A stretch of 38,480 bases of DNA from Microthrixaceae bacterium (GTDB taxonomy: Bacteria > Actinomycetota > Acidimicrobiia > Acidimicrobiales > Microtrichaceae), in NCBI GenBank assembly GCA_044228005.1, contig JBGAVR010000031.1, positions 1-38,480 on the forward strand. The letters are read 5' to 3'. Positions 5,924 to 38,480 of the stretch are shown piece by piece (within the stretch, counting starts at the first letter, position 1; each line of letters begins with the position of its first letter). A program made the position numbers and the translations under genes. The notes under the pieces were generated by a model, which saw only the letters and a list, made by a program, of their open reading frames with translations, was not told the DNA's origin and searched no databases.

Positions 5924-5926
5924 CCG

Positions 5927-6901
5927 ATGAGCGAAGCGAATCAGTCCTCTGAAGCGAGTCAGACCTCTGAAGCACAGCAGTCCTCTGAAGCACAGCAGTC
6001 CTCTGAGGAGGTTGCACCCATTGAGTTCAACGGCGCAGTTGCGGTGGTCACTGGTGGAGCAAACGGCATCGGTAAGGCGCTCGTTCGTTCGTTGCTCGGC
6101 CGAGGTGCTCAGGTGGTGATTGCCGATATCGAGCAGTCTGTACTTGATGCAACAGTCGCGGAGCTCGGTCAGCTCGGGGAGGTGAGTGGAGTTCGCACTG
6201 ACGTCACGAGCGAAGCCTCAACGGCAGCGCTCGCCGATCGAGTGTTCGAACAGTACGGCCGCTGCAACCTCTTGTTCCTCAATGCAGGGGTGACCTCGGG
6301 CGGGGGAGGCTTGCCGTGGGAACAGGAACCAAACGACTGGCGTTGGTGTTTCGGCGTGAACGTGATTGGTACTGGAATCGGGGTGTCGACCTTCGTTCCT
6401 CGCATGATCGCCACTGGTGAGCCTGGCCAGATCATTCTGACCTCCTCGCGAGATGGCGGAATAGCGCCCATTCCAACCGCCTCGGTGTACGCGGCGTCCA
6501 AAGCTGCGGTGAGCTGTCTCGCAGAGACCTTGCAGCACAATCTGATCAGCGAGAACACAGCGTTGCGCGCTTCGGTGTTCTACCCCTCCGGTGGCTTGTT
6601 GGACACTGGCCTGTACTCCGCGGCACGCAACCGACCCGAGGAGCTTGCCCGAGTGGGTGCTGGTACGGGTCGAGCCAGCATGACCTTCGATCAGCTGGTC
6701 AGCCGAGTGGAAGCGGCAACTGGTTCACCTCCGCCGATTGCCAATCTTGCGGAGCTGGGCGAGTTCGTGATGGACAACGTTGCGGAGCGGCGCTTCATCA
6801 TCGCAAAAGGGCTTGAAGCAACGGAAGCGCTGCTGAAGAAGCGGGCCGAAGCAATCGGCCGTGGCGAGCTTCCCGAACCGCACGGCATCAAGCTCGGTTA
6901 G
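5927..6901 (+). CDS. SDR family oxidoreductase with low-complexity N-terminal SEAQQS repeat
   Basis: TGGANGIGKA Rossmann motif, NAG, and catalytic S...YAASKAAV (YxxxK). The start lies 4 nt after the upstream stop. The N-terminus is encoded by an in-frame tandem repeat (5933-6010). Confidence 0.85.
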   Translation: MSEANQSSEASQTSEAQQSSEAQQSSEEVAPIEFNGAVAVVTGGANGIGKALVRSLLGRGAQVVIADIEQSVLDATVAELGQLGEVSGVRTDVTSEASTAALADRVFEQYGRCNLLFLNAGVTSGGGGLPWEQEPNDWRWCFGVNVIGTGIGVSTFVPRMIATGEPGQIILTSSRDGGIAPIPTASVYAASKAAVSCLAETLQHNLISENTALRASVFYPSGGLLDTGLYSAARNRPEELARVGAGTGRASMTFDQLVSRVEAATGSPPPIANLAELGEFVMDNVAERRFIIAKGLEATEALLKKRAEAIGRGELPEPHGIKLG

Positions 6902-6990
6902 AGAATCGTTGATTGATGGCGCTGGACATATGCTGATCGACCCTAGGCGCACAACCCTCGGCGAGTAACGCAGTCGGGTGGTGCTGGTCG

Positions 6991-9900
6991 CTACGAGCGG
7001 GGTCGGGATGTGATCTCTGCGGAGAGCTTCACCACCTGCTCAGGATCATCGGGTGGAATCAAATCCACCACATCCCATCCGGCCTGGCGCAACATCGCGT
7101 AGCGATCGAGATGAGCAGCCGCACCATCGGGATGAGCTCCACACAGCACACCAATCACGTTGGTCTCATATTCGAGGACAAGATCGACAACGTGACGTCC
7201 GACCGGGAAGGAATTGGTGACCGAGGCGCCCCCGAATCGGCACGCCTGCCCAAACGTCTCCGCGGTTGCGTTCCTGGCCGCCGCAGCGCTCAGCCTCATA
7301 TCCGGAGGGGTTCGTGCCCATGTGAGGTACCGGCCAATCAGACTTGAAGGCTCCGATACCTCCGTTGCAAACACATCGATCTCGTTGCGTGCCCGGGTCA
7401 CCAGCACGTTGAAAAGGTTCGCGTTCTCCAAGAAACGAGCGCGTCCGGGCGGCGAGGTGTGGTCGATCCCGACCACGATCAGTACGTGGGATCGTTCTGC
7501 TCCTTGAAACCCATGGGTAGTAGAGATCATCAGATTGGTGTCAGCGAGGAGCTCTGGGGACAAATCGGTGAGCGCTGTTTCGGTGAGCTGGTCGACGATG
7601 TCTCGGAACGGGGAGATGATTCCGATGCTCCGGACGCCTTCGCGATGTAGCGCGCGTGTCCGCTCAATAGCCTCAGCAATGGCTGACTGGTTGTCGGCAA
7701 CGAGGTGAGTGTGGATGCAGTCGAGCGTGAGATTGTGAGGAGACTGCGTGACGAGGTGAAGCGGGTTGGAATAGAAGTGCTCGGCAGAAAACCCTATGAG
7801 GTGCGGTGCTGACCGGTAGTGCTCGTCAAGCCACTGGACCGGGGCTGCTGAGGCAGCGAGGTCAAACACGCTGTTGCGCGCGGGATCGAGGCGTGCCACG
7901 TGTTCGAGGAGGTCGGCCTGGGCGAATGCAGAATGGGTTGCCTCGCTAGAAAGAAATGACACGAAGCGCAACTGTTGGGGATCGCCTGCAATGAGTGCGC
8001 GCTTCGCCCGGAGGAGGCCCGGCGCAGCCACCGCCAGTTCGACTTGGGAGGCTTCATCGACGACGACGAGGTCGAACAGGCCTGCAATCTTCGGTAGTAG
8101 ACGTTCAATTTCACCAAGTGTCCCAAGCCACAATGGCGCAGCCTGAAGGAGCTCCTGGGGGTTGAGGGTGTCGATAAGCTTCCCGCGCGAAGCGGCTCCC
8201 GAGCGCAGGGCAGTGCTCAGCGCCGACACAACCTGTCGGCCCGAGCTGCTGCGGGCCTGTTCCAGAAGTTCCTGATCTAGTAGCTGGCCGCGAAGTAGTC
8301 GGAGCGATGCAGTGGCCTCAAACCATCGGGGCAATGTCCTGCGAAGTTCTTCACCGATCTCGGTGAGTTGAGGTTTCGATCTCGATGCTTCGGCCGCTGC
8401 AATGGCCTCACCGATGTGGCGCAATCTGCGAGCGAGATGAGGTTCGTTGTCTGTCTTGAGCGGTGTGGACAGACGCTTGTTGAGCCTGCGAATCGCCACT
8501 CGTCGTCGTTGCCGAACCCACCAATTGCCTTCAACAGGGCGAGCAGTGTTGAGCGTCTTGGTGAACCTTTCGAGGTCGGCATTGGGGGCGAAGAGAGGTG
8601 GAAACTCCTCTCGAAATCCCCCGATGATCTCGGGATCAGTCAGGTAGGTCTCTACTGCTTCAACGACGGCAAGCAGTTCTAGCGCTCGTGCATGCAGGGT
8701 TTGCTCTTCCAGCGTTCGTGCTTCTAGTTGAACCTCGAGTTTGGAGTCCCCAGCATGAAGGTCCGGGGTTGGCGCAGCCAGGCGACGATCAAGTTCGGAG
8801 ATTGCCGACTTGAGCGCGTCCGGCGAACCAAAACGTAACGCTGGAGGGCCAGGCTGTTTGCCGAGTTGAGCGGCGATCACTTCGGCGGCCTCGATTGACC
8901 GGGTTGCCACAAGTACCGATTGACCGGCTGCAATCGCATTGCAGATTGCGGCGCAGAGGGTATGAGTTTTACCGGTGCCGGGGGCGCCAGACACCGCCGT
9001 GACTGGTTCGGTCGCGGCCGACAGGGCGATCATCCGTTGAGCGGCGCTCAGAGGTAACAGTCCCTCGAACGTTGCGATGGAATGCACATCCGAGTCGTGC
9101 GTGGCGATCAGAGCCGAGTGACCCGCCGGGCCTTCGAGCGGCTCTGCCGCCTGCCCTGCCGCGAGCCCTGTTGAGTGTTCTCGCGCGTGAGGGAACGCGA
9201 TGGAGTTGAACGCAGTTTCGTCGATGCCCTCTACGCTCGCCCATCGCCCAACTGCTGCCCGCTGAGTGAAGCTGCTGGTTGGTGAAGGAGCAACGAGGCC
9301 GAGCCCAATACAAACGGTCACACGGTCTTCAACTGGTTCGATGCTCGCTGGATGAGCCTCGGTGATCTGGTCTAGTTCCCATCCGATGGCCGCTGCGAGG
9401 AGACGAATCCAATGGTGAACTTCCTCCATGGCAGTGGAGTGGGAGCCTTCCTCAAGGCTCGCCGATTCGCTCGTAGAGAAGGCGGCGTTGAGGACCTGCT
9501 CGGCCGCCGATTCGTCCTCGATGTCGACTCCGAGGTTCCAGTCGGTCGCCTGACGGAGAGTCCACGAGTTTGAGAAGGGCAGGGTCCGGAGGTTCGAAAA
9601 GGGACGAAGGGTCGCCGGTGGGTTGCCGAGTTCGATCCGGGTTTGCAGCAGCGGCAACCCGACGCGGCGTGGCTGCTGTGAGTTCGTTTCGCTGGGGTGG
9701 TTCCGAACAGCCACGAGCCAGGTTGCGCGAATCGACTGATCGCCGGCGAGATTCGACCGCAACTGAAGATGTTCGAGGATTTTGTTGCTCGTCGGAAGCG
9801 CTGCACCGCTGGGCCCAAGGACCGAGAGCTGACCGTTCGCAAGGCTGGAGAGACTGTTGTTTCGTATCGAAAGGAGACCAAAGGGATCAGAGAAACCATC

Positions 9901-10014
9901 AATTCCGCTCGGTGTTGTTCCAAGCCAAACCAGGTCATCGAGGCGAAGAGTTTCCTGAGCGGAACTTGACGCACTGAGGGAACTCAGCGCTTGAAGTAGT
10001 GCCTGTGTCTGCAT
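6991..10014 (-). CDS. Upf1/DNA2-like SF1 helicase (AAA_11/AAA_12) fused to C-terminal DUF559/Vsr-like PD-(D/E)xK endonuclease domain, with an uncharacterised ~330-aa N-terminal region
   Basis: Walker A GAPGTGKTHT (aa 343-350, nt ~8965-8988), DEASQ box (VVVDEASQV), GDPQQL motif, and a helicase C-terminal motif TTHGFQGAERSHVLIV. The C-terminal ~100 aa (GRHVVDLVLEYETNVIGVL...GWDVVDLI) resemble DUF559 restriction-endonuclease-like domains. Confidence 0.8.
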   Translation of the reverse strand: MQTQALLQALSSLSASSSAQETLRLDDLVWLGTTPSGIDGFSDPFGLLSIRNNSLSSLANGQLSVLGPSGAALPTSNKILEHLQLRSNLAGDQSIRATWLVAVRNHPSETNSQQPRRVGLPLLQTRIELGNPPATLRPFSNLRTLPFSNSWTLRQATDWNLGVDIEDESAAEQVLNAAFSTSESASLEEGSHSTAMEEVHHWIRLLAAAIGWELDQITEAHPASIEPVEDRVTVCIGLGLVAPSPTSSFTQRAAVGRWASVEGIDETAFNSIAFPHAREHSTGLAAGQAAEPLEGPAGHSALIATHDSDVHSIATFEGLLPLSAAQRMIALSAATEPVTAVSGAPGTGKTHTLCAAICNAIAAGQSVLVATRSIEAAEVIAAQLGKQPGPPALRFGSPDALKSAISELDRRLAAPTPDLHAGDSKLEVQLEARTLEEQTLHARALELLAVVEAVETYLTDPEIIGGFREEFPPLFAPNADLERFTKTLNTARPVEGNWWVRQRRRVAIRRLNKRLSTPLKTDNEPHLARRLRHIGEAIAAAEASRSKPQLTEIGEELRRTLPRWFEATASLRLLRGQLLDQELLEQARSSSGRQVVSALSTALRSGAASRGKLIDTLNPQELLQAAPLWLGTLGEIERLLPKIAGLFDLVVVDEASQVELAVAAPGLLRAKRALIAGDPQQLRFVSFLSSEATHSAFAQADLLEHVARLDPARNSVFDLAASAAPVQWLDEHYRSAPHLIGFSAEHFYSNPLHLVTQSPHNLTLDCIHTHLVADNQSAIAEAIERTRALHREGVRSIGIISPFRDIVDQLTETALTDLSPELLADTNLMISTTHGFQGAERSHVLIVVGIDHTSPPGRARFLENANLFNVLVTRARNEIDVFATEVSEPSSLIGRYLTWARTPPDMRLSAAAARNATAETFGQACRFGGASVTNSFPVGRHVVDLVLEYETNVIGVLCGAHPDGAAAHLDRYAMLRQAGWDVVDLIPPDDPEQVVKLSAEITSRPRS

Positions 10015-10045
10015 GCGGATTTCAGGCTACCGAGAACCCGTCAGA

Positions 10046-10516
10046 TCAGTGATTCGCAAGCTCGCTCAGCATCTCGACGAGGTTCGATGCGCCATCTCTG
10101 CACTTCGGGGCCAGATCAAGGAGTTCGAGCACCGCCTCCCGAAGAATCTCCGTCGCGTTTGCGACAAGTTCCTGTCCCTCATCGGTGAGCGAGCAGCGAG
10201 TGAGGCGAGCGTCGCGCTGGTCCCGAGTTGTGGCGACACAGCCGATGCGTTCCAACGGCTGCAACGCGCGTGTGACCCCGGAAGCTGTGAGTCCAACCTG
10301 TCGCGCAAGGTCGATTCGACTTGCTCCAAGTGCGTTGGGGGACTGGCTGAGCGCGTGGAGGATTCGGTAGTCGGACAAGCTGAGTCCGACCAACGAGCCA
10401 AGCCTGGCTCCAAGTGTTCTCTCGGTGGTGGCCCATGCGGCGCCAAGGCTGAGGAGGAGTCGTTCAGGGTGAGTCGCGGTTGATGGCTTCTGTCTGGCGG
10501 CGGAAGTTCTAGGCAT
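10046..10516 (-). CDS. MarR family transcriptional regulator
   Basis: Winged-HTH core LSLSDYRILHALSQSPN...RIDLARQVGLTASGVTRALQPLERIGCV. It lies 31 bp upstream of, and co-directional with, the helicase-nuclease gene, and is divergent from the SRPBCC gene. Confidence 0.85.
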   Translation of the reverse strand: MPRTSAARQKPSTATHPERLLLSLGAAWATTERTLGARLGSLVGLSLSDYRILHALSQSPNALGASRIDLARQVGLTASGVTRALQPLERIGCVATTRDQRDARLTRCSLTDEGQELVANATEILREAVLELLDLAPKCRDGASNLVEMLSELANH

Positions 10517-10617
10517 CCCGCCATAGTACTTGAGTGCTCACGGAATACGCATGTTGTTTTCCTCCTTTCTGCGTCCGGTTCCTCCGCCTAGTCTCGGAGT
10601 CCAAGGAGGAGCGAGAC

Positions 10618-11415
10618 ATGAGCGAAGAACGGTCACTCGAAATCGAGGTGCAGGTGCCAGGCACCGCCGAGGAAGTCTGGAGGGCGATTGCCACTGGGCC
10701 AGGGATCTCCTCCTGGTACGTTCCGCATCAGGTCGAGGAACGCGAGGGCGGGGCCGCAGTTGCCTCCTTCGGCCCAGGTCCTGAAATGCAGATTGCAGGT
10801 CGGGTGGCAGTCTGGGATCCACCGAAGCGGATTCTCTTCGACAAGGGAGAGCCAGATGGTGACGAGGATCCCGGGCTTGCATTCGACTGGCGTGTCGAAC
10901 CTCATAACGACGGAACCTGCACCGTGCGGTTGATCAACACCGGCTTCGGGACCGGCGAAATGTGGGATGGTCAGTACGAAGGTATGAAGGAAGGGTGGAA
11001 GCTGTTCTTCTTCAACCTGAAGCTCCACATGGAGAACTTCGCCGGACAGTCCGCCACCGCAATTCTTCCAATGGCCATGTGGGAAGGGAACCAAGCGGAA
11101 GTGTGGTCCAAGCTGACCACCGATCTCGGGATCGATCCGGCCCCGAGCGTTGGAGACCGAGTCGAGACCTCCGGCGATGCTCCTCGATTGGCGGGCACCG
11201 TGGTGCAGGCGGACTCGTGGCGAATGGCGCTCCTATTGGACGAGCCAGCTGAAGGCACCGCATTCCTCGCGGCGGAGGGCGATGGTCCCTACGTTGGAGT
11301 GTCGGTGTGGTCGTATCTGTACGGCGATGCCGGTGCGGAGGCCGCTGCTACCGCTGAGCCTGCATGGTCGGAATGGCTCGGGGCTCGGGGGCCTTCGGAA
11401 CCTGAGGCTGAGTAG
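10618..11415 (+). CDS. SRPBCC (AHSA1/polyketide-cyclase-like) family protein
   Basis: ATG at 10618 preceded by AAGGAGGA. LEIEVQVPGTAEEVWRAIATGPGISSWY...DPPKRILF is the typical Activator-of-Hsp90-ATPase-like/START fold signature. The track's upstream extension is rejected. Confidence 0.75.
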   Translation: MSEERSLEIEVQVPGTAEEVWRAIATGPGISSWYVPHQVEEREGGAAVASFGPGPEMQIAGRVAVWDPPKRILFDKGEPDGDEDPGLAFDWRVEPHNDGTCTVRLINTGFGTGEMWDGQYEGMKEGWKLFFFNLKLHMENFAGQSATAILPMAMWEGNQAEVWSKLTTDLGIDPAPSVGDRVETSGDAPRLAGTVVQADSWRMALLLDEPAEGTAFLAAEGDGPYVGVSVWSYLYGDAGAEAAATAEPAWSEWLGARGPSEPEAE

Positions 11416-15609: not shown

Positions 15610-17781
15610 TTGGTCATGAAGTACTCACTGATATTCGTTCTTACGATGGCGTTCTTGGCGATTGCGGCGATTATCGTCCTGCGTTCGCTCGTCTCCATTG
15701 GTCCCGCCGAAGTTGGCATGGTCACCAAACGGTTTTCGCTCCGAAAACTGAAGGATGACGACATCATCGCGTTCAATGGCGAGCCGGGATACCAGGCCGA
15801 CCTGCTGATGCCAGGGCTCCGATTCAAACTTTGGCCGATCTTCACCGTGAGTAAGCACCCATGGGTGCAGGTCCCAGCCGGTGAGATTGGCGTGATCATC
15901 TCTCAGGTCGGTGCACCGCTCGCAGTTGGCGCTAAGTCCGCCGTCTACAACGAGGCACTCGCCAACTTCTCAGACCTCCGTAGCTTTCTCGCGAATGGAG
16001 GGCAAAAGGGTGTTCAGCGGCCGGTGCTTCCCCCAGGCTCGATCCTTCCCCTTCATCCATCGGCCTTCATTGTGCTCACGCCCAATCGTGTGTTCGGAAT
16101 GCCAACCACCCCCGAGCTCACCAAACTGGCTGCCGCAGGCCAACTGACCCCTGAGTCGTTTGGGCTGATCGAATCCCAACTGCAAGTAACGGTCATAGCC
16201 CCTCAGGGAGATCGAGATTACGTCGGCATTGTCACGGCATTGGAAGGGCAACCGCTTGAGCAGGGCGATATTGCGAGTCGCCTCGGCGGGTACGAAGACA
16301 TCCGGATGGGAGAGATCAATGGCGCAAATGACGCGCAAATTGTTGAGCAACTGCTCGGCAGTCAAAACGGACTTCACAACAACTACCAGGACTTTCAGAA
16401 GTTCATCGATCACGGAGGCCGAATTGGCCTGCAGCATGATCCGATTCTGTACGGCGCGTACCTGCTGAACCCGTTCCTTGTTCGAGTCGAGCTTGTCCCA
16501 ATGCTGGTCGTGAATCAGGGCCAAGTTGCCGTGGTGAAGTCATTTGTGGGCCTTCCGACGATCGACACCTCCGGCGAGGAGTTCAAGTTTGGATCCATCG
16601 TTGCCCCGGGTCACCGCGGTATCTGGCGAGAGCCGCTTCGAACTGGGAAGTACCCAATCAACCCGCGTTGCTACGCAGCAGAGATCGTTCCAACCTCCAT
16701 CATCACGTTGAACTGGGCGAACGCCAACAGCCAAGCGCACTCCCTCGACGCGCACCTGTCTCCGATCGAAGCAAAGAGCCGGGAGGGTTTCGTATTCACA
16801 ATCGATCTGCAGGTGCAGATCCACGTGCCTGATACTCGTGCGCCGAAGGTGATCTCGATGGTCGGCACCATGATGAACCTTGTGAACGAGGTGCTTCAGT
16901 CCGCAGTAGGGAACCATTTCAGAAACACGCTCCAACAACTTGAAGCAATCAAGTTCATCGAAACTCGCCATGAGGTTCAGGCAGCGGCATTCACGCGAAT
17001 CACTGACTACTTGACTCAATATCAGGTCGAAACCAAGGGTGTGTATATCCAGGACGTCCAGTTCCCAAGCGACATTGTCGAGGTGTTGACGACACGAGAG
17101 ATCGCCAACCAGGAGAAGGCGACCTTCGAGGAGCAGCAGCGAGCCCAGCTTGCGAGAATCGAACTTGAGAAGACCACCGGAACCGCAGACCAGCAAGCGA
17201 ACCTTGCTGCCTCGCAGGTGGGTATCACCATTAAGCAGAACCAGGCCGAGGCTCGACGTGCTGAAGCGGCGGGCGAGGCTGGGGCAACCGTTGCACTTGG
17301 CGAGGCGGAGGCTCAGAAGCAGCGTGCCATTGCTATCGCTCAGGCAGACGCGATTCGAGCGCAAGGCATTTCCACTGCCGACTCAATGCGAGCTCAGGGT
17401 GAAGCGCAGGCCAACACCGACCGGCAGACGGGTCTCGCGAAGGCCGATGCTTCAAAGGCGCTTGGTTTGGCTCAGGCGGCAGGGTATGAGGCACAACGTC
17501 TGGCGTTGGGCGAAGCTGCCACAGCTGCGGTCAACATTGTGGACGCCATTGGTCGAGGTGATGTGAAGATCATGCCGGAGATCTTGGTCTCGGGCGGCTC
17601 TGGTGGGCCGTTCGAAGCGCTTGCCGCGGCATTGACTCGGCTCGTCCAATCCGGCGGGCTGGCATCTGTTGAAGGCCATGAGGGTGTGAAAGCAGCTGTG
17701 GCTAGCGCAACGCCGATCCCACAAGGGCCGACCCCACAAGGGCCGACCCCACAAGGGCCGACTTCTTCAGGGCCACAGTAG
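15610..17781 (+). CDS. Flotillin-like SPFH/Band-7 membrane protein with long Ala/Gln/Glu coiled-coil and PQGPT C-terminal repeat
   Basis: N-terminal TM helix, SPFH core, and an extended EA-rich coiled coil (ARRAEAAGEAGATVALGEAEAQKQRAIAIAQADAIRAQ) typical of YqiK/FloT-like flotillins. The C-terminal PQGPTPQGPTPQGPT is encoded by a 15-bp ×3 tandem repeat (17717-17761). Confidence 0.85.
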   Translation: MVMKYSLIFVLTMAFLAIAAIIVLRSLVSIGPAEVGMVTKRFSLRKLKDDDIIAFNGEPGYQADLLMPGLRFKLWPIFTVSKHPWVQVPAGEIGVIISQVGAPLAVGAKSAVYNEALANFSDLRSFLANGGQKGVQRPVLPPGSILPLHPSAFIVLTPNRVFGMPTTPELTKLAAAGQLTPESFGLIESQLQVTVIAPQGDRDYVGIVTALEGQPLEQGDIASRLGGYEDIRMGEINGANDAQIVEQLLGSQNGLHNNYQDFQKFIDHGGRIGLQHDPILYGAYLLNPFLVRVELVPMLVVNQGQVAVVKSFVGLPTIDTSGEEFKFGSIVAPGHRGIWREPLRTGKYPINPRCYAAEIVPTSIITLNWANANSQAHSLDAHLSPIEAKSREGFVFTIDLQVQIHVPDTRAPKVISMVGTMMNLVNEVLQSAVGNHFRNTLQQLEAIKFIETRHEVQAAAFTRITDYLTQYQVETKGVYIQDVQFPSDIVEVLTTREIANQEKATFEEQQRAQLARIELEKTTGTADQQANLAASQVGITIKQNQAEARRAEAAGEAGATVALGEAEAQKQRAIAIAQADAIRAQGISTADSMRAQGEAQANTDRQTGLAKADASKALGLAQAAGYEAQRLALGEAATAAVNIVDAIGRGDVKIMPEILVSGGSGGPFEALAAALTRLVQSGGLASVEGHEGVKAAVASATPIPQGPTPQGPTPQGPTSSGPQ

Positions 17782-29753: not shown

Positions 29754-30647
29754 CTAATGGCTGGTGCAGTGTTGGCGGTCCGCCGCAGTTTGCACGCGTT
29801 CGACGGTCACATCCACTTCCATTTCCGTTGGTCCGCCAACTGAGGTGACCACTCCCTTGAGTGGCACTACGTCGGAATAGTCACGACCCCACGCGATCGT
29901 GATGTGCGAGGCTGGCTCGACCAGGCCATTGGTGGGGTCGAGATCAATCCACCGGCCATCCGCATCCTGAACTGATGCCCACGCATGGGAGGCATCGGCG
30001 CCAGCGAGCACCGGTTCTCCGGCGGGCGGCACATTCTCGACGTACCCACTGACGTAACGTCCGGCGAGGCCGAGCGACCGGACGCAATCAAGCAGCACAT
30101 GAGCGAAGTCTTGGCAGACACCGCTCCGAGTAGCCAGCACCTCGCTGACAGGGGTAGCGATGGTTGTCCAGCCGGGCCGGTAGGAGAAATCCAGAAAGAT
30201 GCGCCGGTTGAGATCCGTGAGACTCTCGAGGAGCGGCCGGCCGGGGGCGAAGGATGGGAGGGCGTATTCAGCCGCTTCCGCGGAGTGCGGGATGAGTGGA
30301 CTCTCCAGCGTGAAGTCACGGTCGAGGGGAGAGGCTGCCGTGTGGGCCAACGCTTGTTCCCAACTCGCTGCTGGGTTGGTGAGCGCTCGGCTCCTCAGCA
30401 GCTCGACCTCACTGGTCGCAACCACCTCGAAGACTTGGTGTGGCTCTTCGATACTGAAGTAGGTGCAACGGTTGCCATAGAGGTCGATGTGGTCCGCCCG
30501 GTCCGCAGGTGTCGGCGAGATCTCCAACCAGTGGTTCATCACGCGCTGTCCTGGTGTGGGCCTCGGCGTTAAGTGGGCCTGGTGGATGCTCATCGTTACT
30601 GGGCTGGGAGCGTGGTAGACCGTCGAATGGCGAACTCGATACATCAT
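29754..30647 (-). CDS. Transglutaminase-like cysteine protease superfamily protein (Rv2409c/Rv2569c-like)
   Basis: Bacterial transglutaminase N-domain followed by a core with catalytic Cys (SGVCQDFAHV), His and Asp. ATGA overlap with the upstream gene. Confidence 0.85.
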   Translation of the reverse strand: MMYRVRHSTVYHAPSPVTMSIHQAHLTPRPTPGQRVMNHWLEISPTPADRADHIDLYGNRCTYFSIEEPHQVFEVVATSEVELLRSRALTNPAASWEQALAHTAASPLDRDFTLESPLIPHSAEAAEYALPSFAPGRPLLESLTDLNRRIFLDFSYRPGWTTIATPVSEVLATRSGVCQDFAHVLLDCVRSLGLAGRYVSGYVENVPPAGEPVLAGADASHAWASVQDADGRWIDLDPTNGLVEPASHITIAWGRDYSDVVPLKGVVTSVGGPTEMEVDVTVERVQTAADRQHCTSH

Positions 30648-33172
30648 CCATGCTCCCCGCGGACGCCCGGCCGGGCAGCGAGATCGTCGATCGATTCCCC
30701 AGAAACTGGTGCGGACGACCCACCGAAGATGGTGGTCGGACGAACATGAACGAAGTATCTCAGGTCGATCTCAGTGGCGATCGCAGCGAGAGTCTCGCGT
30801 GCACTGTCGGTCAGGATTTCAAGAGCTTCCCTTCGTCCAAGCGCTCCCGCTGCAGCGAGCGAGTCTGGAGAGGAGGCCTCAATCAGGGAACTGAGCCCAC
30901 GAGTCTTGTCCAGCAGGTCGCGCGTGAGCGGCGAAGCGCCGGGTAACGATTCGATATTGATGGCAAGTGCTTCGAGTTGGGAGCGCACCGAACGAGGGTT
31001 GGAGCTATCGGTAACCAACAGGTCGATCAGCAGCGCCGCGTCAATATCGGAGCGGTATCGGCGCCGATAGGCTCCCAAACCATCCCAGGTGACAAGAATC
31101 GTCTCGAAGAGTGGCGCTTCCATGTCCCGGGGGAGGTCATCGACAAGCACGGTCGCGATGGTGGTGATCACCAGTGAGGCAACCTCGACTCGACGGCCGA
31201 TATCGAGAAACTGCCAGCCAGGGTCTCGCACCATTGAGTCGTTCACCACGCCAGAGAGCGCCAAGAGGGGGCCAGCGCAGGAAGCGGCGATCTCGCCCGC
31301 CTCCTCAGGCCCCGCGGTTGCCAGGCTCAGAAGGTAATCACTGACCTGGCCGAGGAATCGCCAGGAATCTGAGGAGAACAGTTCCCGAACAGATGCTGCG
31401 TTGTGTAACAAGAAGTGAAGGGAGGTCGACAGGCTTCGTTCTCTGCTTCGATCCACCAGGGCGGCATTGAGGAGCTCAGCGGTCGTTGGAGGATCCGGAG
31501 GTGCTGGCGTCGGAAGCCAACCAAGGCCAGCCATCGAGTTGAGTAATCGGTCGACATTCCATGTCCAGGGCCAGGGGTGATCCTGTCGAAGATCGTGGCG
31601 GGTTTCGTTGAGAAGCCCAACTGCGCCGACGAGGCGGATCATGCAGCGACTTCGCTCCAAGTTCCTGCCGATCCAAAACATTGACTCAGCAGCCCTGCTC
31701 GCGAGTGAACTCCGCAGATCAATCGGGGCAAGGGTGGTGCCGAGTGCCAACGTCGGGTGCTCCAGCGCGCTGTGGGATTGGGTGATCCAGGTGTCCTTGC
31801 TGAGGCTGAATGTCCCGAAGGTGATTGCCTCTGGTTGCGCGCCCGTCAGCGTGAGGCCGCCCTCCAAGCAATGGTATCCATCGTGGTCCCGCACCAGGAA
31901 GGCCCGGGAGATGGTGGGACGCCCGACAACAGTGCCGGTTGGGGTGCCGGTGCCAGCGGATGCGCTGTCGAAACTCGGCGTCGGGGCAATGTCTACCTCC
32001 TGCTGACCGACGAAGAGGTGGGGCTCAGCGGTGATGCGGCGTGCCAACTCTTCGCGCTGCTCAGCGCACAGGAGGCGACCAAACAACGTGTGGCGACCAT
32101 TGATTCGATGGTGCGAGCGGATGAGCAGCGAGTCAAGGTGCGCGAGAACATGAGAGCGAGAGGAAGACTCGCCGCACCACCAGGTGGGAGGGCTTTGGAT
32201 TCGGGGGTCTTCTCCGAGGAGAGTCCGAGTCAAACTCGGGATGTAGGGCAACAGGGCAGCGCATTCGCCGAGACCAGAACCGAGTGGGTTGGCTACCGCC
32301 ACGTTGCCTCGTCGGCACGCCTCGACGAGGCCCGCCACACCAGCTGTAGAGTCGAACCCCAACTCCAAGGGGTCGCAATCGGGCGAGGCAACCAGTCGCA
32401 AAATCACGTGTACGGGTTCGAGTCCTGCCACTGACTTCAGCCACACCTTGGCTCCACGAACGGTCAGGTCGCCCGGCTCCACGAGCGTGAACCCCAACTT
32501 GCGGGCGAGGAAGGCGTGTTCTGAGTGGGCGCTGACACTTGTTCCTGGCGTCATCATGACGATTCGCGGTTGGGCTACTTGAGGAGGGGCGAGCGCTCCC
32601 AACGCGGTTCTGCAGATGCCAAGCCAGTTCTCAAGTGGCGCCACTCGATGTTGCTCCATGGCCTCGGGATTCACCCGGGCCATCACCTCCCGGTTTTGCA
32701 GAGCGTGGCCGATTCCCCATGGCATCTGGGTGCGATCTGCCAGAACGAGAAACTCACCATCGATGCTGCGAGCCACGTCTGACGAGTACAACACAAGGTT
32801 GCTCGACCCGGGTGAGCCAATGCCGACGCAACACCGCAGATATTCCTCGTGAGCGAGGATTGCGAGGGTGGGGAGGTGCCCTCCGGCGAGAAGCCGTTGA
32901 GGCCCGAAGAGGTCTTCCAACAACAGTCGAAGCACCGTTGCTCGTTGTTCCAATGCCCGAGATACGCTCTCCCACTCGAGCGCATTGATGCTCAGCGGAA
33001 GTGGATCGAGCTCCCAGTTTGCACCGTCTCGATCCTGGGGGATTGGGTGGTTGAAGATCGACCCAGTGCCCATCTGAGCAAGTGCTCGATGGATCTGGGC
33101 GGCGTTCGTCTGCAACGCTGCAGCAGAGCGCTCGGCGGGCGCCATGAGGTCTGACCCGACGCCAGAACTCAC
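30644..33172 (-). CDS. Fused circularly permuted ATP-grasp (CP_ATPgrasp type 1) + alpha-E domain protein (Rv2567-like)
   Basis: 842 aa. The N-terminal ~480 aa are collinear with the stand-alone CP-ATP-grasp encoded upstream. The C-terminal ~320 aa begin with the alpha-E signature ESMFWIGRNLERSRCMIRLV. Confidence 0.85.
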   Translation of the reverse strand: MSSGVGSDLMAPAERSAAALQTNAAQIHRALAQMGTGSIFNHPIPQDRDGANWELDPLPLSINALEWESVSRALEQRATVLRLLLEDLFGPQRLLAGGHLPTLAILAHEEYLRCCVGIGSPGSSNLVLYSSDVARSIDGEFLVLADRTQMPWGIGHALQNREVMARVNPEAMEQHRVAPLENWLGICRTALGALAPPQVAQPRIVMMTPGTSVSAHSEHAFLARKLGFTLVEPGDLTVRGAKVWLKSVAGLEPVHVILRLVASPDCDPLELGFDSTAGVAGLVEACRRGNVAVANPLGSGLGECAALLPYIPSLTRTLLGEDPRIQSPPTWWCGESSSRSHVLAHLDSLLIRSHHRINGRHTLFGRLLCAEQREELARRITAEPHLFVGQQEVDIAPTPSFDSASAGTGTPTGTVVGRPTISRAFLVRDHDGYHCLEGGLTLTGAQPEAITFGTFSLSKDTWITQSHSALEHPTLALGTTLAPIDLRSSLASRAAESMFWIGRNLERSRCMIRLVGAVGLLNETRHDLRQDHPWPWTWNVDRLLNSMAGLGWLPTPAPPDPPTTAELLNAALVDRSRERSLSTSLHFLLHNAASVRELFSSDSWRFLGQVSDYLLSLATAGPEEAGEIAASCAGPLLALSGVVNDSMVRDPGWQFLDIGRRVEVASLVITTIATVLVDDLPRDMEAPLFETILVTWDGLGAYRRRYRSDIDAALLIDLLVTDSSNPRSVRSQLEALAINIESLPGASPLTRDLLDKTRGLSSLIEASSPDSLAAAGALGRREALEILTDSARETLAAIATEIDLRYFVHVRPTTIFGGSSAPVSGESIDDLAARPGVRGEHG

Positions 33173-34158
33173 ACGACGACTCGACCCGCCGGGTGGAGGG
33201 TCCGGGTTGTTTCTGGCGTGAAGAACGTATCGTTCAACGCGTTGTGAAGTGACAGGATGCCGAGTTGCATGTGATCGACCCAGCTATGAAGCGCCTCGGC
33301 CTCGAGGCCTCCCGAACGGGTGCTCAGCATGTCACGAAGGTCAGCTGCATGTTCTCGCAGATGTGGACGATGGGGAAGGCCTCCCAGGATTTGATCGACG
33401 CGTGCTAGGCAATGCTGCACTGCTCGGGGGAAGTCCTGGTCCTCCACGAGGAACTCGACAACCGATTCGCCAGCGATTGAGCCCGAAGTTCGCCGGGCGT
33501 ACATGTGCTGTGCGCCAAGGCTGCGCAGCACACCGAGCCACCGGACGTCCTCATAGGGGCTTCGGTCTGCGGGGGGAAGTGCTCCTTTGGCTCCTTCGTC
33601 AAGCAGGCTGGTGGCGCGAACGTCGAGCACTCTGGTGGTCATATCGGCTCGTTCCACATTTCGTCCGAGTTCGTAGAAGGAGAACGCGTCGTCCCGACTG
33701 ACGGTTGAGGCGAGAATCCCCATGATCTGCTGGCCTGCGGCGATGATGTCGCTGCACAGCTCAAGACGGGCAGTCCTGTGGGCACATGTCCCGGCGCTCG
33801 TCGCGACACTCGTGTGCAGCAGGTTCACACACTCCCAGAGCGAGGAGGGCATCAACTGGCGGGTGACTCGCAAGTTCTCACGCGCCGAGGCGACTGTTCG
33901 GATGACAGAAGTTGGGTTGCCGATATCTGCCATGAGGTGGTTGACGATGCTCATCTCATCCAACGAGGAGTACCGAAGCAGATACGTCTCATCGGCGCCC
34001 GTAATGGCCAACAGCCCGGCCCAGTCGGAATCCACGTCAATGGGCAGGTCCACGAGCAACTTGGTGTGCTCGCGGATGATTCGTGACACTGCTTCGGCAC
34101 GTTCGAGGTGGCGCCCAAGCCAATAGAGGTTCGCTGCGGTTCGTGACAACATCATCAC
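33169..34158 (-). CDS. Alpha-E domain protein (DUF403; Rv2410c-like)
   Basis: N-terminal MLSRTAANLYWLGRHLERAEAVSRII is the hallmark alpha-E start. ATGA overlaps on both sides. Confidence 0.85.
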   Translation of the reverse strand: MMMLSRTAANLYWLGRHLERAEAVSRIIREHTKLLVDLPIDVDSDWAGLLAITGADETYLLRYSSLDEMSIVNHLMADIGNPTSVIRTVASARENLRVTRQLMPSSLWECVNLLHTSVATSAGTCAHRTARLELCSDIIAAGQQIMGILASTVSRDDAFSFYELGRNVERADMTTRVLDVRATSLLDEGAKGALPPADRSPYEDVRWLGVLRSLGAQHMYARRTSGSIAGESVVEFLVEDQDFPRAVQHCLARVDQILGGLPHRPHLREHAADLRDMLSTRSGGLEAEALHSWVDHMQLGILSLHNALNDTFFTPETTRTLHPAGRVVV

Positions 34159-35729
34159 ACTGCTCCTTGTCTGTTTGCTTGCTGGTCTGGTGTTTGCTGG
34201 TCTGGTGTTTGCCGGTCTGCGGTTTGCTGGTCTGTTGTTTGCTGGCCTGGTGCTGGCGAATTCGCTGCCAGTTGTTCGGTCACAGCGGCTGCTGGTTTCG
34301 CGTCTGTGTCCACCACCCAGGTGTCCTTCGAACCCCCGCCCTGGGAAGAGTTGACGACGAGTGAGCCCTCCTGGCGGGCCACGCGAGTTAATCCGCCGCA
34401 GGAGACGTAGCTCTCAGCGCCGAGAATCGTGAACGGTCGAAGATCGACGTGCCGGGGCGCGAGTCGACCCTCGCAGATCGTCGGGACGACTGACAGGTTG
34501 ACCACAGGTTGGGCTACATATCCGCGGGGGTCGTTTCTAATGTCCTTGGCGCAGCGATCGAGTTCGTCCCGTGTCGCCATCGGGCCGATGACGATTCCGT
34601 ATCCGCCCGACTCGTTGGCCGGTTTGACGACCAACTCCGACAGATGATCGAGTACGAACGCTCGATCCTCCACCTCGCCGCATTGGTAGGTGGGCACGTT
34701 CGCCAAGATCGGCTCCTGGTCGAGGTAGTACCGAATCATGTCGGGGACATAGGAGTAGACCGCTTTGTCGTCAGCTACCCCAGTGCCTGGGGCGTTCGCT
34801 ATGGCGACATTTCCGGCCTTCCAGGCACGCAAAATTCCGGGCACTCCCAAGGCGCTGTCCTTCCGGAAGACCTCCGGATCCAGGAAGGTGTCGTCTACTC
34901 GTCGGTACAGGACGTCAACCCGAACGGGACCGCTAATCGTGCGCAGAAACAGGCGGTCCTCATCGACGAAGAGGTCGCGACCCTCTACCAACTCGACTCC
35001 CATTTGGTGAGCCAGGAAGCAGTGCTCGAAATAGGCAGAGTTGTGAATGCCGGGCGTGAGCACGGCAATCACTGCCGCGTCGCCCAAGGGGCTCAGGGAG
35101 GCAAGGATCCTGCGAAGTCGCTCCGGGTAGGCATCGACAGGGAGGATGGATTGATGTGCGAACAGATCTGGAAAGACACGCTTCGTAATCTCACGGTTTT
35201 CCAGCATGTAGGAAACACCTGAGGGGACTCGAAGGTTGTCTTCGAGCACGAAGATGGTGCCGTCGCTGCCCCGCACCAAGTCGCTTCCGCAGATGTGTGC
35301 CCAGACGCCATGAGCGGGCTCTGCGCCTCGGCATTCTGGCCGAAACCCGGGCGAATGATCGATGAGCTGCCGGGGGATGTGGCCATCGTGGAAGATCTGT
35401 TGCGCGCCGTAGACGTCGGCGATGAACCTATTGAGGGCAGTAAGTCGCTGCACGAGACCCGCCTCGACTCGGTCCCATTCGCGCCGACTAATGACTCGGG
35501 GAACGATGTCGAGAGGCCATGCCCGATCGATTCCATCGCCTTCGGAGTAGACCGTGAAGGTGATGCCCGCCGCCTCGATACTGAGGTTTGCGGCATGCTG
35601 TCGTTCTTCAATCTCCTCGATACCAAGACGCTCAAGGTGACTGACCAGTGCTGCTGCAGCATCGCGTGGCTTGCCAGCCTCGTCGATGAGTTCATCGAAG
35701 GACGGGGGTTGGTAGTCGCCGAAGAGCAC
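34155..35729 (-). CDS. Circularly permuted ATP-grasp type 1 protein (DUF404/DUF407; Rv2411c-like) with DQQTP-repeat C-tail
   Basis: 524 aa. GTG start at 35729 with a purine-rich tract immediately upstream. The C-terminal DQQT(P/A)D repeats are encoded by a 15-bp tandem repeat (34174-34252). Confidence 0.85.
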   Translation of the reverse strand: MLFGDYQPPSFDELIDEAGKPRDAAAALVSHLERLGIEEIEERQHAANLSIEAAGITFTVYSEGDGIDRAWPLDIVPRVISRREWDRVEAGLVQRLTALNRFIADVYGAQQIFHDGHIPRQLIDHSPGFRPECRGAEPAHGVWAHICGSDLVRGSDGTIFVLEDNLRVPSGVSYMLENREITKRVFPDLFAHQSILPVDAYPERLRRILASLSPLGDAAVIAVLTPGIHNSAYFEHCFLAHQMGVELVEGRDLFVDEDRLFLRTISGPVRVDVLYRRVDDTFLDPEVFRKDSALGVPGILRAWKAGNVAIANAPGTGVADDKAVYSYVPDMIRYYLDQEPILANVPTYQCGEVEDRAFVLDHLSELVVKPANESGGYGIVIGPMATRDELDRCAKDIRNDPRGYVAQPVVNLSVVPTICEGRLAPRHVDLRPFTILGAESYVSCGGLTRVARQEGSLVVNSSQGGGSKDTWVVDTDAKPAAAVTEQLAANSPAPGQQTTDQQTADRQTPDQQTPDQQANRQGAV

Positions 35730-35813
35730 CTCTCTTTCCTATAGGTGCTCTGTGAATCATCTGTGTGCGCTTCGTTTCAGGGGCGTGAACACAGTGTCCG
35801 GTTGGGCGAATGG

Positions 35814-36587
35814 CTATGACGACACTGCGAGAGTCGACGCAAAGATCTGCCAGGCGAGCGCCGACTTCGCTACAAAGCTGAGCACGATGTAGATCCTCTC
35901 GCCGTGGAGATAGTTGGCCCACTTACCCTTGGCTCGGTACTGCTTGTACTGCACGAGGGCGAAGCAGTTGAACAGCAGGAACAGCGAGACGACGATTCCG
36001 TAGACGAAACCTGGTGCGGTTGATTCAGGCGGGCCCTTGGGCGAGATGAGTTGGAAGACGAAGAGGAGCCACGGGACCGACCCAGCAATGCAGCCGAAGA
36101 TGAAGGGGAGCCATTCGCCATCGCCCGGTGTTGTGAACTTCTCCTGAAGCCAACCGAACAGAATCATGGAGACGTTGATCCCGAAGATCGCGGCGAGCGC
36201 AGTGATCTCGCTGATTCCGTTGAGTTGGGCGATCACGAAGACCATGATCGAGGAACTCAGCGAGTACTCGACCCAGCGGAAGATGTTGCGACTCTGCAGT
36301 AGCGAGGCCTGATACCTCGGAAAGAACTTCGGTGAAGCGACACTGAAGTGAAACAGCGCGGACAACCCGAGAAACAGGGCGATCGAGATTGCTACCCGAC
36401 TGTCGAACAGCGTCACGGGAGCGGAAAACGTCGATCCAGGCGGCCCAGTCTGGTAGGTGGCGGTCACTGGCAACGAGAAGTCGTTGGCTAGAACCAGCAC
36501 GGCGATCAGGGAGACCGCGTGTAGCGCTCCGGCGAAGAGGTTGAGAGTGCGAAGCGGTGCCACGCCCTCGGAGTGGGTGGAAGTCAT
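35814..36587 (-). CDS. Heliorhodopsin (7-TM retinal-binding photoreceptor, inverted topology)
   Basis: 257 aa with 7 predicted TM helices. Conserved blocks match my recollection of heliorhodopsin 48C12: LANDFSLPVTATYQTGPPG, FRWVEYSLSSSIM (counterion Glu), VSMILFGWLQEKF, GFVYGIVVS, LVQYKQYRAKGKWANYLHGE, and SFVAKSALAWQIFA carrying the Schiff-base Lys. The ATG overlaps the GT1 stop (ATGA), with AAGAAGGG about 10 nt upstream. Confidence 0.85.
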   Translation of the reverse strand: MTSTHSEGVAPLRTLNLFAGALHAVSLIAVLVLANDFSLPVTATYQTGPPGSTFSAPVTLFDSRVAISIALFLGLSALFHFSVASPKFFPRYQASLLQSRNIFRWVEYSLSSSIMVFVIAQLNGISEITALAAIFGINVSMILFGWLQEKFTTPGDGEWLPFIFGCIAGSVPWLLFVFQLISPKGPPESTAPGFVYGIVVSLFLLFNCFALVQYKQYRAKGKWANYLHGERIYIVLSFVAKSALAWQIFASTLAVSS

Positions 36588-37930
36588 GGTTGTAGGACCC
36601 TTCTTGTCAGAATTTCGCGACTGTCTGACGGGAGTTGAGGCTTCCGTCCATGTTGGAGGATCGCCGTGATGGCCCTCGTTGGTCCCCCGTTGGAGGTGAT
36701 CGAATCGGCCAACTTGCGAGACCGCTCGTTGGACTCCGGACCGAGCAGGTCTGCCACGGCGGTTACTAGCTCCTCACTGGTCACGGTGTTTGGAGCCAGC
36801 GCTATGCCGAGGCCAGTGCGTTCGATCGTAGCAGCGGCAGCGAACTGGTCGGTCGAGAACGGAAGCAGGATCATTGGCACCCCAGCGGCGGCTGCCTCGG
36901 TGACACTTCCGTTTCCCCCGTGGTGAATGATCACGTCGGTGTGGTTGAGGATTGCCACCTGAGGAAGATGTCGAACGATGACGGCTCCCGGAGGCGGCTC
37001 GCCGAGGGAGCCAGGTGTCGAGCTGCCATGAGCGAGGGCGAGGCGCCAATTCCCGATTCGAGCGGCGGAGATAGCGGTGGCGAGAACGTCGCCGCGGGCG
37101 CTCAGAAACGACCCCAACGCGACGGTGACTCGAGGCCCAGATCCCGAGGGGAGGGTGAAGTCCCCCAACGACTCCGCACGGGGCAGCGCACCAATGAACA
37201 CCGCCTCTGGAGGCAGTGTGCGGGAGGAGTCGTGCAGTGCTTCGGGATACACGTAGATGGTCGGATACCCAGGAGTCGACGTGAGATCGCCGATGGGGCC
37301 TCGCTGCGGTGCCCGGCGAAGCAGGAACTCGTTGCTCAGTTCGCGCAGGTTCTCGACCGCGAGCTCGCAACGCTGCCGCACTGCCTGGATGTCAGTCTCA
37401 GACGGTCTCGTCGCAGATGGCCAAGCAGGAGGTAGCCCATACACCTCTCCGGGCGCCGGCAGGGCGCTCGGGTGACCGAGTACTACGGTCGCGGCCTCAA
37501 CTCCGAGGGCATGCAACGCGAGACGTGCACCGAAGGCGACGTGGTCGACCAGCACGCGGTCTGGCTGAACTGCCTCGATGATCACCGCCAATTCATCGAA
37601 TACTCGATCGGGCTCGTGGAGCAGGTCGTGGCCGCGGGCATCAGCCTGGTAGCGCAGGGTTGCCAGTGGACCCGACCGTGTGGCGTCGAAGAACGCTTGG
37701 AGGTGCTCATCCTCTCCCTTGGGTTGATCGCCAACTTCAATGACGCCGCCGTTACTGCCAGCGCCGAGCCGAAGCTCAATCCACGCAAGTCCCGCTGCCT
37801 CGACGGCCGACCGGGTTGCGCTGCCGGTGGCGATGACGACCTCACCGCGGGTACGGCTCCATTCGCTGCCAATCTGCAGGAGGGGCAACGTATGGGACAA
37901 GTAGTCAGGGCTGATGACTAGGAGTTTCAT
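36584..37930 (-). CDS. GT1 family glycosyltransferase (UDP-glycosyltransferase/MGT-like)
   Basis: 448 aa. The C-terminal donor-binding signature HHGGNGSVTEAAAAGVPMILLPFSTDQ is typical of GT1 UGT/MGT enzymes. Confidence 0.8.
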   Translation of the reverse strand: MKLLVISPDYLSHTLPLLQIGSEWSRTRGEVVIATGSATRSAVEAAGLAWIELRLGAGSNGGVIEVGDQPKGEDEHLQAFFDATRSGPLATLRYQADARGHDLLHEPDRVFDELAVIIEAVQPDRVLVDHVAFGARLALHALGVEAATVVLGHPSALPAPGEVYGLPPAWPSATRPSETDIQAVRQRCELAVENLRELSNEFLLRRAPQRGPIGDLTSTPGYPTIYVYPEALHDSSRTLPPEAVFIGALPRAESLGDFTLPSGSGPRVTVALGSFLSARGDVLATAISAARIGNWRLALAHGSSTPGSLGEPPPGAVIVRHLPQVAILNHTDVIIHHGGNGSVTEAAAAGVPMILLPFSTDQFAAAATIERTGLGIALAPNTVTSEELVTAVADLLGPESNERSRKLADSITSNGGPTRAITAILQHGRKPQLPSDSREILTRRVLQP

Positions 37931-38480
37931 CGGAGCGGAAGCCCGACACGGCTTGGTAGAGGTCGAGCGCTGAAACGCTCATCGGTGTGTACAGGCGGCA
38001 CCAGCGCTCGGTACACGCCGCCAAGTCGTTGGGCCATCTTCTCGATACTCAGTTCTGTCCGAACCTTGTCTCTCGCTCGCTGAGCGCGGCCCGGAATGCC
38101 CTCCAGCTCCAGCGCCGCGACAATGGCCGCGCGTAGCGAGGAGATGGAGAGCGTGTCGCAGAGGATTCCTATGTCGCTGTGGCTGATGTAGGTGCGTGGC
38201 CCTCCACGCTCGGGGGCGACTACCGCTGCTCCGGCGGCAAGCGCTTCCACGATGGCCAACCCGAACTCCTCCTTATCGCTCGCGCAGACGTAGACGCCGC
38301 CATGGCAAACCGTCTCTGCCATCAGGTCGCTGACCACCGAAGGGGGAAGGTGGCCAGTAAGTGTGACGAGGCCAGGTTCTGCATCGGCAGCGGCGAGCTG
38401 AATACGCTCGATGGTTGACTGCTCATCGGGAGACGGATTTTCCAAGTCGCCGCCAATGATCACCACATTGACCCTGTCGG
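37927..38480 (-). CDS. GT4 family glycosyltransferase, C-terminal part (gene continues beyond window end)
   Basis: EEFGLAIVEALAAGAAVVAP is the GT4 EX7E motif. The reading frame stays open to the window edge. Its stop overlaps the GT1 start by 4 nt. Confidence 0.7.
   Translation of the reverse strand, partial: DRVNVVIIGGDLENPSPDEQSTIERIQLAAADAEPGLVTLTGHLPPSVVSDLMAETVCHGGVYVCASDKEEFGLAIVEALAAGAAVVAPERGGPRTYISHSDIGILCDTLSISSLRAAIVAALELEGIPGRAQRARDKVRTELSIEKMAQRLGGVYRALVPPVHTDERFSARPLPSRVGLPLR

Follow-up and report, generated by a model that had tools for sequence, protein, structure and literature searches.

Heliorhodopsin gene overlapping a GT4-GT1 glycosyltransferase gene pair in a Microthrixaceae contig, with relatives near CarH-type regulators

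The physiological role of heliorhodopsins (HeRs) is largely open, and the functions with experimental support all came from testing operon neighbors. In three cases an HeR was shown to bind and modulate the product of a neighboring gene in its operon: AbHeR with glutamine synthetase, TfHeR with photolyase, and OcHeR with the ABC transporter OmrDE (Cho 2022, Shim 2022, Cho 2024). Basic residues in the cytoplasmic loops matter in two of the three (PMC9529153, PMC11109279). Here we describe an HeR gene in a stretch of 38,480 nt from a Microthrixaceae bacterium (assembly GCA_044228005.1, contig JBGAVR010000031.1, positions 1 to 38,480; hereafter the window). It is the final gene of an operon with two glycosyltransferase genes, of families GT4 and GT1. 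An initial annotation, made from the letters of the window, had recorded the HeR gene and its overlap with the GT1 gene. The present analysis adds the three-gene operon, a GT4-GT1 module that occurs mostly without HeR, and a CarH-type neighborhood in relatives.

The HeR open reading frame (ORF) is 774 nt long and encodes 257 aa (35814..36587, minus strand). The coordinates in the initial annotation were right; the strand is added here. The product matched the Pfam family PF18761 (Heliorhodopsin) over the full profile, positions 1–242 of 242, with 301.5 bits (cut-off 26.7, E=5.2e-90), and the NCBIfam equivalog NF038020 with 309.5 bits (cut-off 100). In a search of solved structures, residues 9–254 aligned without a gap to residues 9–254 of 48C12 (PDB 6su3, 6uh3 and 9ljj; E~1e-103), with 155 of 246 residues identical (63%). 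TaHeR was matched in the solved-structure search with E=7e-53, gapless at K241.

The residue numbers correspond 1:1 to those of 48C12, so the functional positions could be read directly. The last-helix lysine singled out before, in SFVAKSALAW, is the retinal Schiff-base lysine K241 (codon 35865..35867, minus strand), and the glutamate of the third helix, in RWVEYS, is the counterion E107 (codon 36267..36269, minus strand; both positions computed from the start at 36587). H23, H80 and S237 were also retained, and the LANDF...GPPG and FGWLQEK blocks were found as described. The seven-helix span (residues 9–254) contained no disruptive indel relative to the three crystal-structure sequences. The alignment to 48C12 and TaHeR that had been proposed as a check thus kept the K, E and H positions. 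The gene is intact, and retinal binding is predicted. By its sequence the protein is a canonical 48C12-type heliorhodopsin, an ordinary member of the family. It would have the inverted seven-helix topology, as judged from the 48C12 alignment, and its cytoplasmic loops carry the basic residues K87, R91, R100, R104, K215, R218, K220, K222 and R231.

Upstream of HeR on the same strand lie the GT1 gene (36584..37930, 448 aa) and the 3' part of a GT4-family gene (37927..38480, minus strand; PF00534 and PF13692), which runs past the window end. An identical locus on CAWKPV010000006.1 (GCA_963851605.1; L081 in our numbering of loci) was used for the sequence 10 kb past this end. There the full GT4 protein is 625 aa long (L081 8127-10004). 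An exact-protein look-up found the L081-type locus on five other assemblies as well, wastewater metagenomes included. Sucrose-phosphate synthase was the best NCBIfam match of GT4 and was rejected (domain model, 76 bits against a cut-off of 576).

The gene order is GT4-GT1-HeR, with a codon overlap at both junctions. The HeR start and the GT1 stop share an ATGA (36584..36587, minus strand; ATG 36587-36585, TGA 36586-36584), and the GT1 start and the GT4 stop share another (37927..37930, minus strand). A Shine-Dalgarno-like sequence, AAGAAGGG, is located in the 3' end of GT1, 10 nt ahead of the HeR ATG (36598..36605, minus strand), and may serve HeR. These overlaps suggested that the three genes are co-transcribed. 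The initial annotation had called HeR translationally coupled to GT1. The overlap it relied on is read directly from the sequence, and coupling of HeR translation to GT1 termination is probable from it. A scan of 35500-38480 for promoter and terminator consensus sequences found none; therefore the operon boundaries were not defined by the scan. That no promoter consensus was seen within the cluster speaks for a single transcript.

We interpreted the locus as a GT4-GT1-HeR operon in which adjacency reflects a shared role in a light response, and in which HeR binds and modulates GT1 and/or GT4; we consider this reading about evenly poised between right and wrong. It starts from three observations: the integrity of the gene, the overlaps, and the recurrence of the neighborhood in relatives. 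One transcript would yield GT4, GT1 and HeR, with HeR translation coupled to the termination of GT1. As a slow-cycling membrane light sensor, HeR would bind the operon enzyme via its positively charged cytoplasmic loops and alter its activity in light. The enzyme would be GT1 and/or GT4, acting on an acceptor that we infer to be lipophilic and membrane-associated. Modulation of the glycosyltransferases appears the most likely mechanism because it is analogous to the three tested heliorhodopsin-partner pairs; the physical contact between HeR and a glycosyltransferase is postulated on this analogy.

The properties of GT1 are consistent with such an enzyme. The protein matched PF00201 (63.8 bits, cut-off 19.5), PF06722 (71 bits, cut-off 31.7) and PF04101. 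An AlphaFold (AF2) model built with 65 homologues had a pLDDT of 94.4 and a pTM of 0.92. Foldseek placed this model among CalG1, OleD, a kitacinnamycin glycosyltransferase, a mite flavonoid UGT (UGT202A2) and YjiC in the PDB, at 19–24% identity, with E=1e-24 to CalG1 and OleD. D102, D129, H337, G339, N340 and the D361-Q362 pair were invariant among the 65 homologues, and H13 was nearly so. The C-terminal nucleotide-sugar motif reads HHGGNGS...STDQF. This pattern is as expected of an active GT-B enzyme.

GT1 had been described before as MGT/CrtX-like and as a class that glycosylates small lipophilic acceptors, carotenoids included. The GT1 family, the GT-B fold and the small-molecule glycosyltransferase neighbors stood up, and the fold model supported the lipophilic small-molecule class. 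Membership in the MGT family was rejected, since TIGR01426 gave 107.1 bits against a cut-off of 260 and covered residues 174–425 only. A carotenoid as the acceptor was not supported. No CrtX model was among the NCBIfam matches. The names 'zeaxanthin glucosyltransferase', 'MGT family' and 'flavonoid glycosyltransferase YjiC' were mixed among near-identical homologues (JGI), and we therefore regard these names as automated.

Support for a link to light came from the relatives. The Ilumatobacteraceae metagenome-assembled genome at L011 has the same order, GT4 (713 aa, with a HEAT-like N-terminus), GT1 and HeR, and the GTG of its HeR overlaps the TGA of GT1 (GTGA). A regulator with an HTH_17 and two B12-binding domains lies divergent and upstream of this cluster. 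The window proteins were 41% (GT1), 40% (GT4) and 73% (HeR) identical to those of this distant lineage. Two loci related to L011, L172 and L173 (GT1 88% and HeR 92% identical to L011), also have GT4-GT1-HeR, with a gap of 44 nt between GT1 and HeR. In them AO435 and a DUF427 gene separate GT4 from a homologous regulator about 2.4 kb upstream (57–62% identical by tblastn), which has the same orientation and is truncated by the contig start.

Other relatives contained the same components in a different order. In L175 two divergent operons meet at the regulator, CarH-like, Dps, SRPBCC, SDR-DUF2867 and HeR on one side and GT4-GT1 on the other. Its GT1 was 68% identical to that of L011. Its HeR belongs to a different subfamily, since it was just 48% identical to the window HeR. 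In L174, a 4.7-Mb contig, the regulator, two small membrane ORFs and a type-1 rhodopsin are on one strand, and GT4-GT1-DUF2071 is divergent. This rhodopsin (5750-6908) has a proton-pump-like helix-3 motif, RYVDWLLTVPLLLAE, and the Schiff-base lysine in DVLAKP. Its N-terminus is split by frameshifts, which are probably long-read assembly errors because other genes of the locus are also fragmented. L013 has a CarH-like gene, two small ORFs, Dps and HeR, and L113 has a CarH-like gene, two small ORFs, GT4, GT1 and DUF2071, and no rhodopsin.

The regulator was divergent from the GT4 operon in L011, L174, L175 and L113. All four CarH-like proteins checked (L011, L013, L174 and L175) contained Wx9EH, GxxW and GxxH, which belong to the signature elements of adenosylcobalamin (AdoCbl) photoreceptors (PMC11796333). 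In total, GT4-GT1 was beside a rhodopsin in four arrangements, involving two GT1 subfamilies, two HeR subfamilies and one type-1 rhodopsin, and in three of the four a CarH-type regulator was adjacent. The order was shuffled yet the membership was retained, which is the usual sign of functional linkage and makes pure chance unlikely. We interpreted the adjacency of GT4-GT1 and rhodopsin as probably functional and part of a light-response neighborhood. In several Acidimicrobiia-like lineages the GT4-GT1 module has come to adjoin a rhodopsin, a CarH-type B12-dependent light-sensing repressor and an SDR-DUF2867 oxidoreductase. The cluster would then belong to a light response, as the recurring neighborhood shows for the relatives and as would extend to the window lineage.

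Genes further upstream in L081 gave related hints. Upstream of GT4 are AO357 (amine-oxidase-like, same strand), then a divergent SDR-DUF2867 gene (476 aa), 4.7 kb upstream of HeR, and then AO418, an amine-oxidase-like flavoprotein (L081 3896-5152, about 6 kb past the window end). The SDR-DUF2867 protein shared 52% identity with its HeR-coupled counterpart in L175 and 60% with another that adjoins GT4-GT1 in L127. No relevant literature on DUF2867 was found. AO418 was 72% identical to the product of a gene beside the L172 cluster (718-2025), a value near that of HeR (73%; the glycosyltransferases, about 41%). No homologue of AO418 at E<1e-8 was found in the 83 HeR-less GT loci scanned (L087-L169), and weaker homologues (35%) lie 7–8 kb from HeR in L059, L064 and L080.

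The same neighborhoods can be explained without any contact between HeR and the glycosyltransferases. HeR and the GT pair may be members of one light or photo-oxidative-stress regulon and act separately, with the glycosyltransferases remodeling an envelope or membrane glycoconjugate and HeR signaling to or regulating, for example, SDR-DUF2867, a known HeR-neighbor class. The shuffled gene order around CarH is in line with this, and so is the HeR of L175, whose start overlaps the stop of SDR-DUF2867 as ATGA rather than being coupled to a glycosyltransferase. SDR and MerR-family regulators are also frequent HeR operon neighbors (Cho et al. 2024), and GT4-GT1 was found without HeR in most genomes, including the diderm Halioglobus. 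On the other hand, two lineages with GT1 proteins only 41% identical both have HeR directly behind GT1, overlapping it or 44 nt away, which is tighter than co-regulation by itself needs. We regard independent action within one regulon as possible but somewhat doubtful.

Several observations weigh against a general partnership of HeR and the GT pair. Two comparison sets were used, 80 HeR loci from species-representative genomes and 80 metagenome loci with GT1 homologues at 43–70% identity, together with further HeR-less contigs, namely three long ones (L087-L089, GT1 homologues at 57–65%) and L176. HeR was downstream of GT1 in 0 of the 80 metagenome loci and in none of the further contigs. Conversely, the GT pair was present at only one of the 80 HeR loci, L011. 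Since 0/80 GT1 loci and 1/80 HeR loci were linked, the coupling of the GT pair and HeR is rare and therefore dispensable for both partners. The nearest relatives of the window HeR, L170 (80%), L001 (77%) and L002 (75%), were not linked to glycosyltransferases. Neither a CarH gene nor the small membrane ORFs were found in the window or 10 kb upstream. Because no CarH gene is near the window operon, light induction in this lineage would be an extrapolation from the relatives. Glycosyltransferases are also outside the ten recurrent groups of HeR operon partners (Cho et al. 2024), and Bulzu et al. (2021) do not name them among the operons listed in their main text.

The GT4 gene was upstream of GT1 in the 80 metagenome loci wherever the sequence reached far enough. 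No conserved third gene was found after GT1; the downstream gene was variable and mostly convergent. DUF2071 followed GT1 in L113/L112 and L174, and L091 has a homologue in opposite orientation upstream of GT4. By this comparison GT4-GT1 is a conserved unit, an old and widespread module that is normally a two-gene operon with a variable downstream neighbor. The L011-type GT1 was 63–70% identical to proteins labeled Halioglobus/Halieaceae, and a 1.18-Mb Halioglobus contig has the GT4-GT1 pair with no crt, rhodopsin or CarH gene nearby.

In a neighbor-joining tree the window GT1 nested among HeR-less loci, and the L011 type formed a deep separate branch. The HeR tree put the window, L011 and L172 into one small clade, with the unlinked L170, L001, L002 and L013 interleaved. 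In the GT1 tree the two linked lineages are far apart, with many HeR-less loci between them. One old gain of the linkage with several losses and two gains would both be compatible with these trees.

Such rarity would be expected if HeR had been placed behind the GT operon by a rearrangement and had borrowed its promoter, with no functional relation between them. The HeR neighborhoods were very heterogeneous across the 80 species-representative loci. The third-position GC of HeR (0.78) is also higher than that of GT1 (0.69) and of the GT4 fragment (0.67; 35814-36587 vs 36584-38466), which could be due to membrane-protein codon composition or to a separate origin. Chance placement among roughly 3000 genes, on the other hand, would hardly give four arrangements of rhodopsin and GT4-GT1. 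We consider hitch-hiking improbable, near the low end of the explanations weighed here, and retain the modulation of the GT pair by HeR as the working proposal.

A third alternative concerns pigments. GT1, with GT4, might glycosylate a carotenoid or another lipophilic pigment, to be used as a photoprotectant or as the second antenna chromophore that has been proposed for heliorhodopsins, docking at the lateral fenestration. The window HeR has F162, C166, G169, F206, N207 and A210, identical to 48C12. A 2025 preprint proposed this pattern as a carotenoid-binding fenestration that about 91% of HeRs share, with docking as its only evidence for binding. The fold of GT1 matches glycosyltransferases with small lipophilic acceptors, and GT4-GT1 is also beside the type-1 pump rhodopsin in L174. 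There is a precedent in the CarH-controlled carB operon of Myxococcus, which includes a predicted carotenoid glycosyltransferase and an acyltransferase (PMC8156234), and an acyltransferase gene adjoins the CarH-like gene in L011.

The genes expected for pigment synthesis were missing. The initial annotation had seen no carotenoid or retinal gene in the window, and Pfam scans of all larger ORFs agreed. No crt, blh or RPE65 gene was found in the window or in the 10 kb past its end (48 kb in total), and no crtE/B/I/Y/Z, blh or RPE65 in any cluster holding a rhodopsin or CarH gene (including L011, L172, L174 and L175) or in L176. AO357 and AO418 were tried as CrtI, CrtD or HpnE and rejected, with scores far under the curated cut-offs (best model for AO418, HpnE, 74 bits vs 283). 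A PDB sequence search with AO418 matched only the FAD-binding N-terminus and was uninformative. The failure of GT1 at the MGT cut-off, the automated origin of the CrtX names, and the presence of the GT module in many genomes with no rhodopsin neighbors also speak against a pigment supply, which we judge unlikely.

A broader form of this idea is equally unlikely in our judgment. In it, the adjacent rhodopsin (HeR, or the type-1 pump of L174) would use a lipophilic chromophore or ligand that carries a sugar, for instance a glycoside of a carotenoid or retinoid. GT4-GT1, together with the recurrent SDR-DUF2867 and amine-oxidase-like flavoproteins, would produce or alter this compound under light control by CarH. 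If true, it would mean an endogenous supply of the second chromophore proposed for heliorhodopsins, in organisms with no classical crt/blh genes near the rhodopsins. Overall, the carotenoid idea is a minority hypothesis, neither supported nor excluded by these data.

Two further observations touch on carotenoids. In two HeR-less relatives of the window GT1 clade, an RPE65-family carotenoid oxygenase gene lies downstream of GT4-GT1, at about 5.6 kb in L087 (16885-18246) and about 5 kb in L088 (16311-17681). In the window a gene of the fatty-acid-hydroxylase superfamily (PF04116; 26943-27695) is beside a GntR regulator, and its similarity to the ornithine-lipid hydroxylase OlsE is weak (46 bits against a cut-off of 475). 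CrtZ-type carotene hydroxylases share this superfamily; nothing points to such a function for this gene.

The two small membrane ORFs mentioned above are conserved (about 74 and 61 aa; L011 6186-6589, L172 2703-3106, L013 ~1438-1700, L113 ~2677-3000 and L174 6556-6911), and no Pfam family matched them. The first contains the motif SVWLYF..D...AGIFVGLWVPSI.SLG. They are across the divergent promoter from the CarH-like gene in L011, L013 and L113. In L174 they follow that gene immediately in the same orientation, and in L172 they lie just upstream of GT4, about 2 kb from the CarH-like gene. They are followed by GT4-GT1-HeR, Dps-HeR or the type-1 rhodopsin.

Between the CarH-like gene and GT4, the spacers of three loci (L175 7475-7635, L174 7783-7856 and L011 6069-6185) share apparent A/T-rich direct repeats of the ACTAAA type, about 10–11 nt apart, for example GACTAAATCAGACTAAATGTTGTTAATATC. 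They resemble the tandem-repeat architecture of CarH operators. In L127, cyclopropane-fatty-acid-synthase-like and SDR-DUF2867 genes flank GT4-GT1 (737-2410 and 9369-10877), and the L174 cluster has a DUF1295 gene nearby (16312-17208). These families may resemble the lipid-modification clusters of the proteobacterial singlet-oxygen stress response.

Repeats were also present in L081. An 8-bp tandem repeat, (GCGACTGA)x5 (GCGGCCGA)x3, is immediately 5' of the GT4 gene (7971-8040), and a 15-bp direct repeat, GGGTCACAGCTGGGA x2, is in the divergent spacer between SDR-DUF2867 and AO357 (~6700-6740). Both are possible regulatory sites of the operon. Beyond AO418 are genes for a GH13-family glycosidase (Pfam Alpha-amylase) and a peroxidase-domain protein (PF00141), probably a catalase-peroxidase.

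Downstream of HeR, a spacer of 84 nt with no consensus terminator (35730..35813, minus strand) separates it from the next gene on the same strand, for a circularly permuted ATP-grasp protein. A perfect 9-bp hairpin, AGAGCACCU...AGGUGCUCU (35722-35752), encloses the ribosome-binding site of this gene and overlaps its GTG start. Taken as a whole, the 111-nt spacer downstream of HeR folded only slightly better than shuffled sequences (z=-1.7). The ATP-grasp gene starts a complete operon by Pfam (29754-35729, minus strand), consisting of circularly permuted ATP-grasp, Alpha-E, an ATP-grasp/Alpha-E fusion (842 aa) and a transglutaminase-like gene. As a conserved companion it was rejected, for it did not accompany HeR or GT1 elsewhere. 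A 15-bp tandem repeat of 4.9 copies at the 3' end of the circularly permuted ATP-grasp gene (34179-34252) encodes a repetitive C-terminal tail rich in Q, T, D and P (…QQTTDQQTADRQTPDQQTPDQQ…).

How does the locus compare with the described systems? As in the HeR-partner pairs, the HeR gene is downstream of an enzyme gene in one operon, and the cytoplasmic loops of its product are basic. Unlike in those pairs, the proposed partner here is a pair of glycosyltransferases. Compared with 48C12, which comes from a freshwater actinobacterial fosmid, the window HeR has the same H23, H80, E107, S237 and K241, the same fenestration residues, and no indel. The context differs: the glutamine synthetase gene of 48C12 is at a large distance (Cho et al. 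2022), whereas the window HeR shares codon letters with GT1.

The window GT1 resembles the MGT/OleD-type enzymes and CrtX (CAZy GT1) in its GT-B fold, its C-terminal nucleotide-sugar motif and its N-terminal His13. It differs from them in its low identity to the CalG1/OleD/YjiC neighbors and its score below the TIGR01426 cut-off. A GT4 protein of 625–720 aa also always accompanied it, a pairing that to our knowledge MGT and CrtX systems do not show.

No paper in the searchable literature joins heliorhodopsin with CarH, LitR or B12, and both the GT4-GT1 partner class and the CarH context are new to that literature. A functional link would tie two unrelated light sensors to the glycosylation of a membrane-associated acceptor; otherwise the gene is one more canonical heliorhodopsin. 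The locus adds the GT4-GT1 pair as an HeR partner class and offers a testable lead on heliorhodopsin function.

The comparative data also place heliorhodopsin, and once a type-1 rhodopsin, inside the neighborhood of a B12-dependent CarH photoreceptor. These relatives are like the CarH/LitR operons of Myxococcus (carB), Thermus and Streptomyces in having an HTH and B12-binding regulator by the cluster and direct repeats in the spacer. The window lineage differs from them in having no such regulator gene near its operon. The relatives differ in the genes that accompany the regulator: in place of crt genes there are those for GT4-GT1, small membrane proteins, Dps, SRPBCC, SDR-DUF2867 and a rhodopsin.

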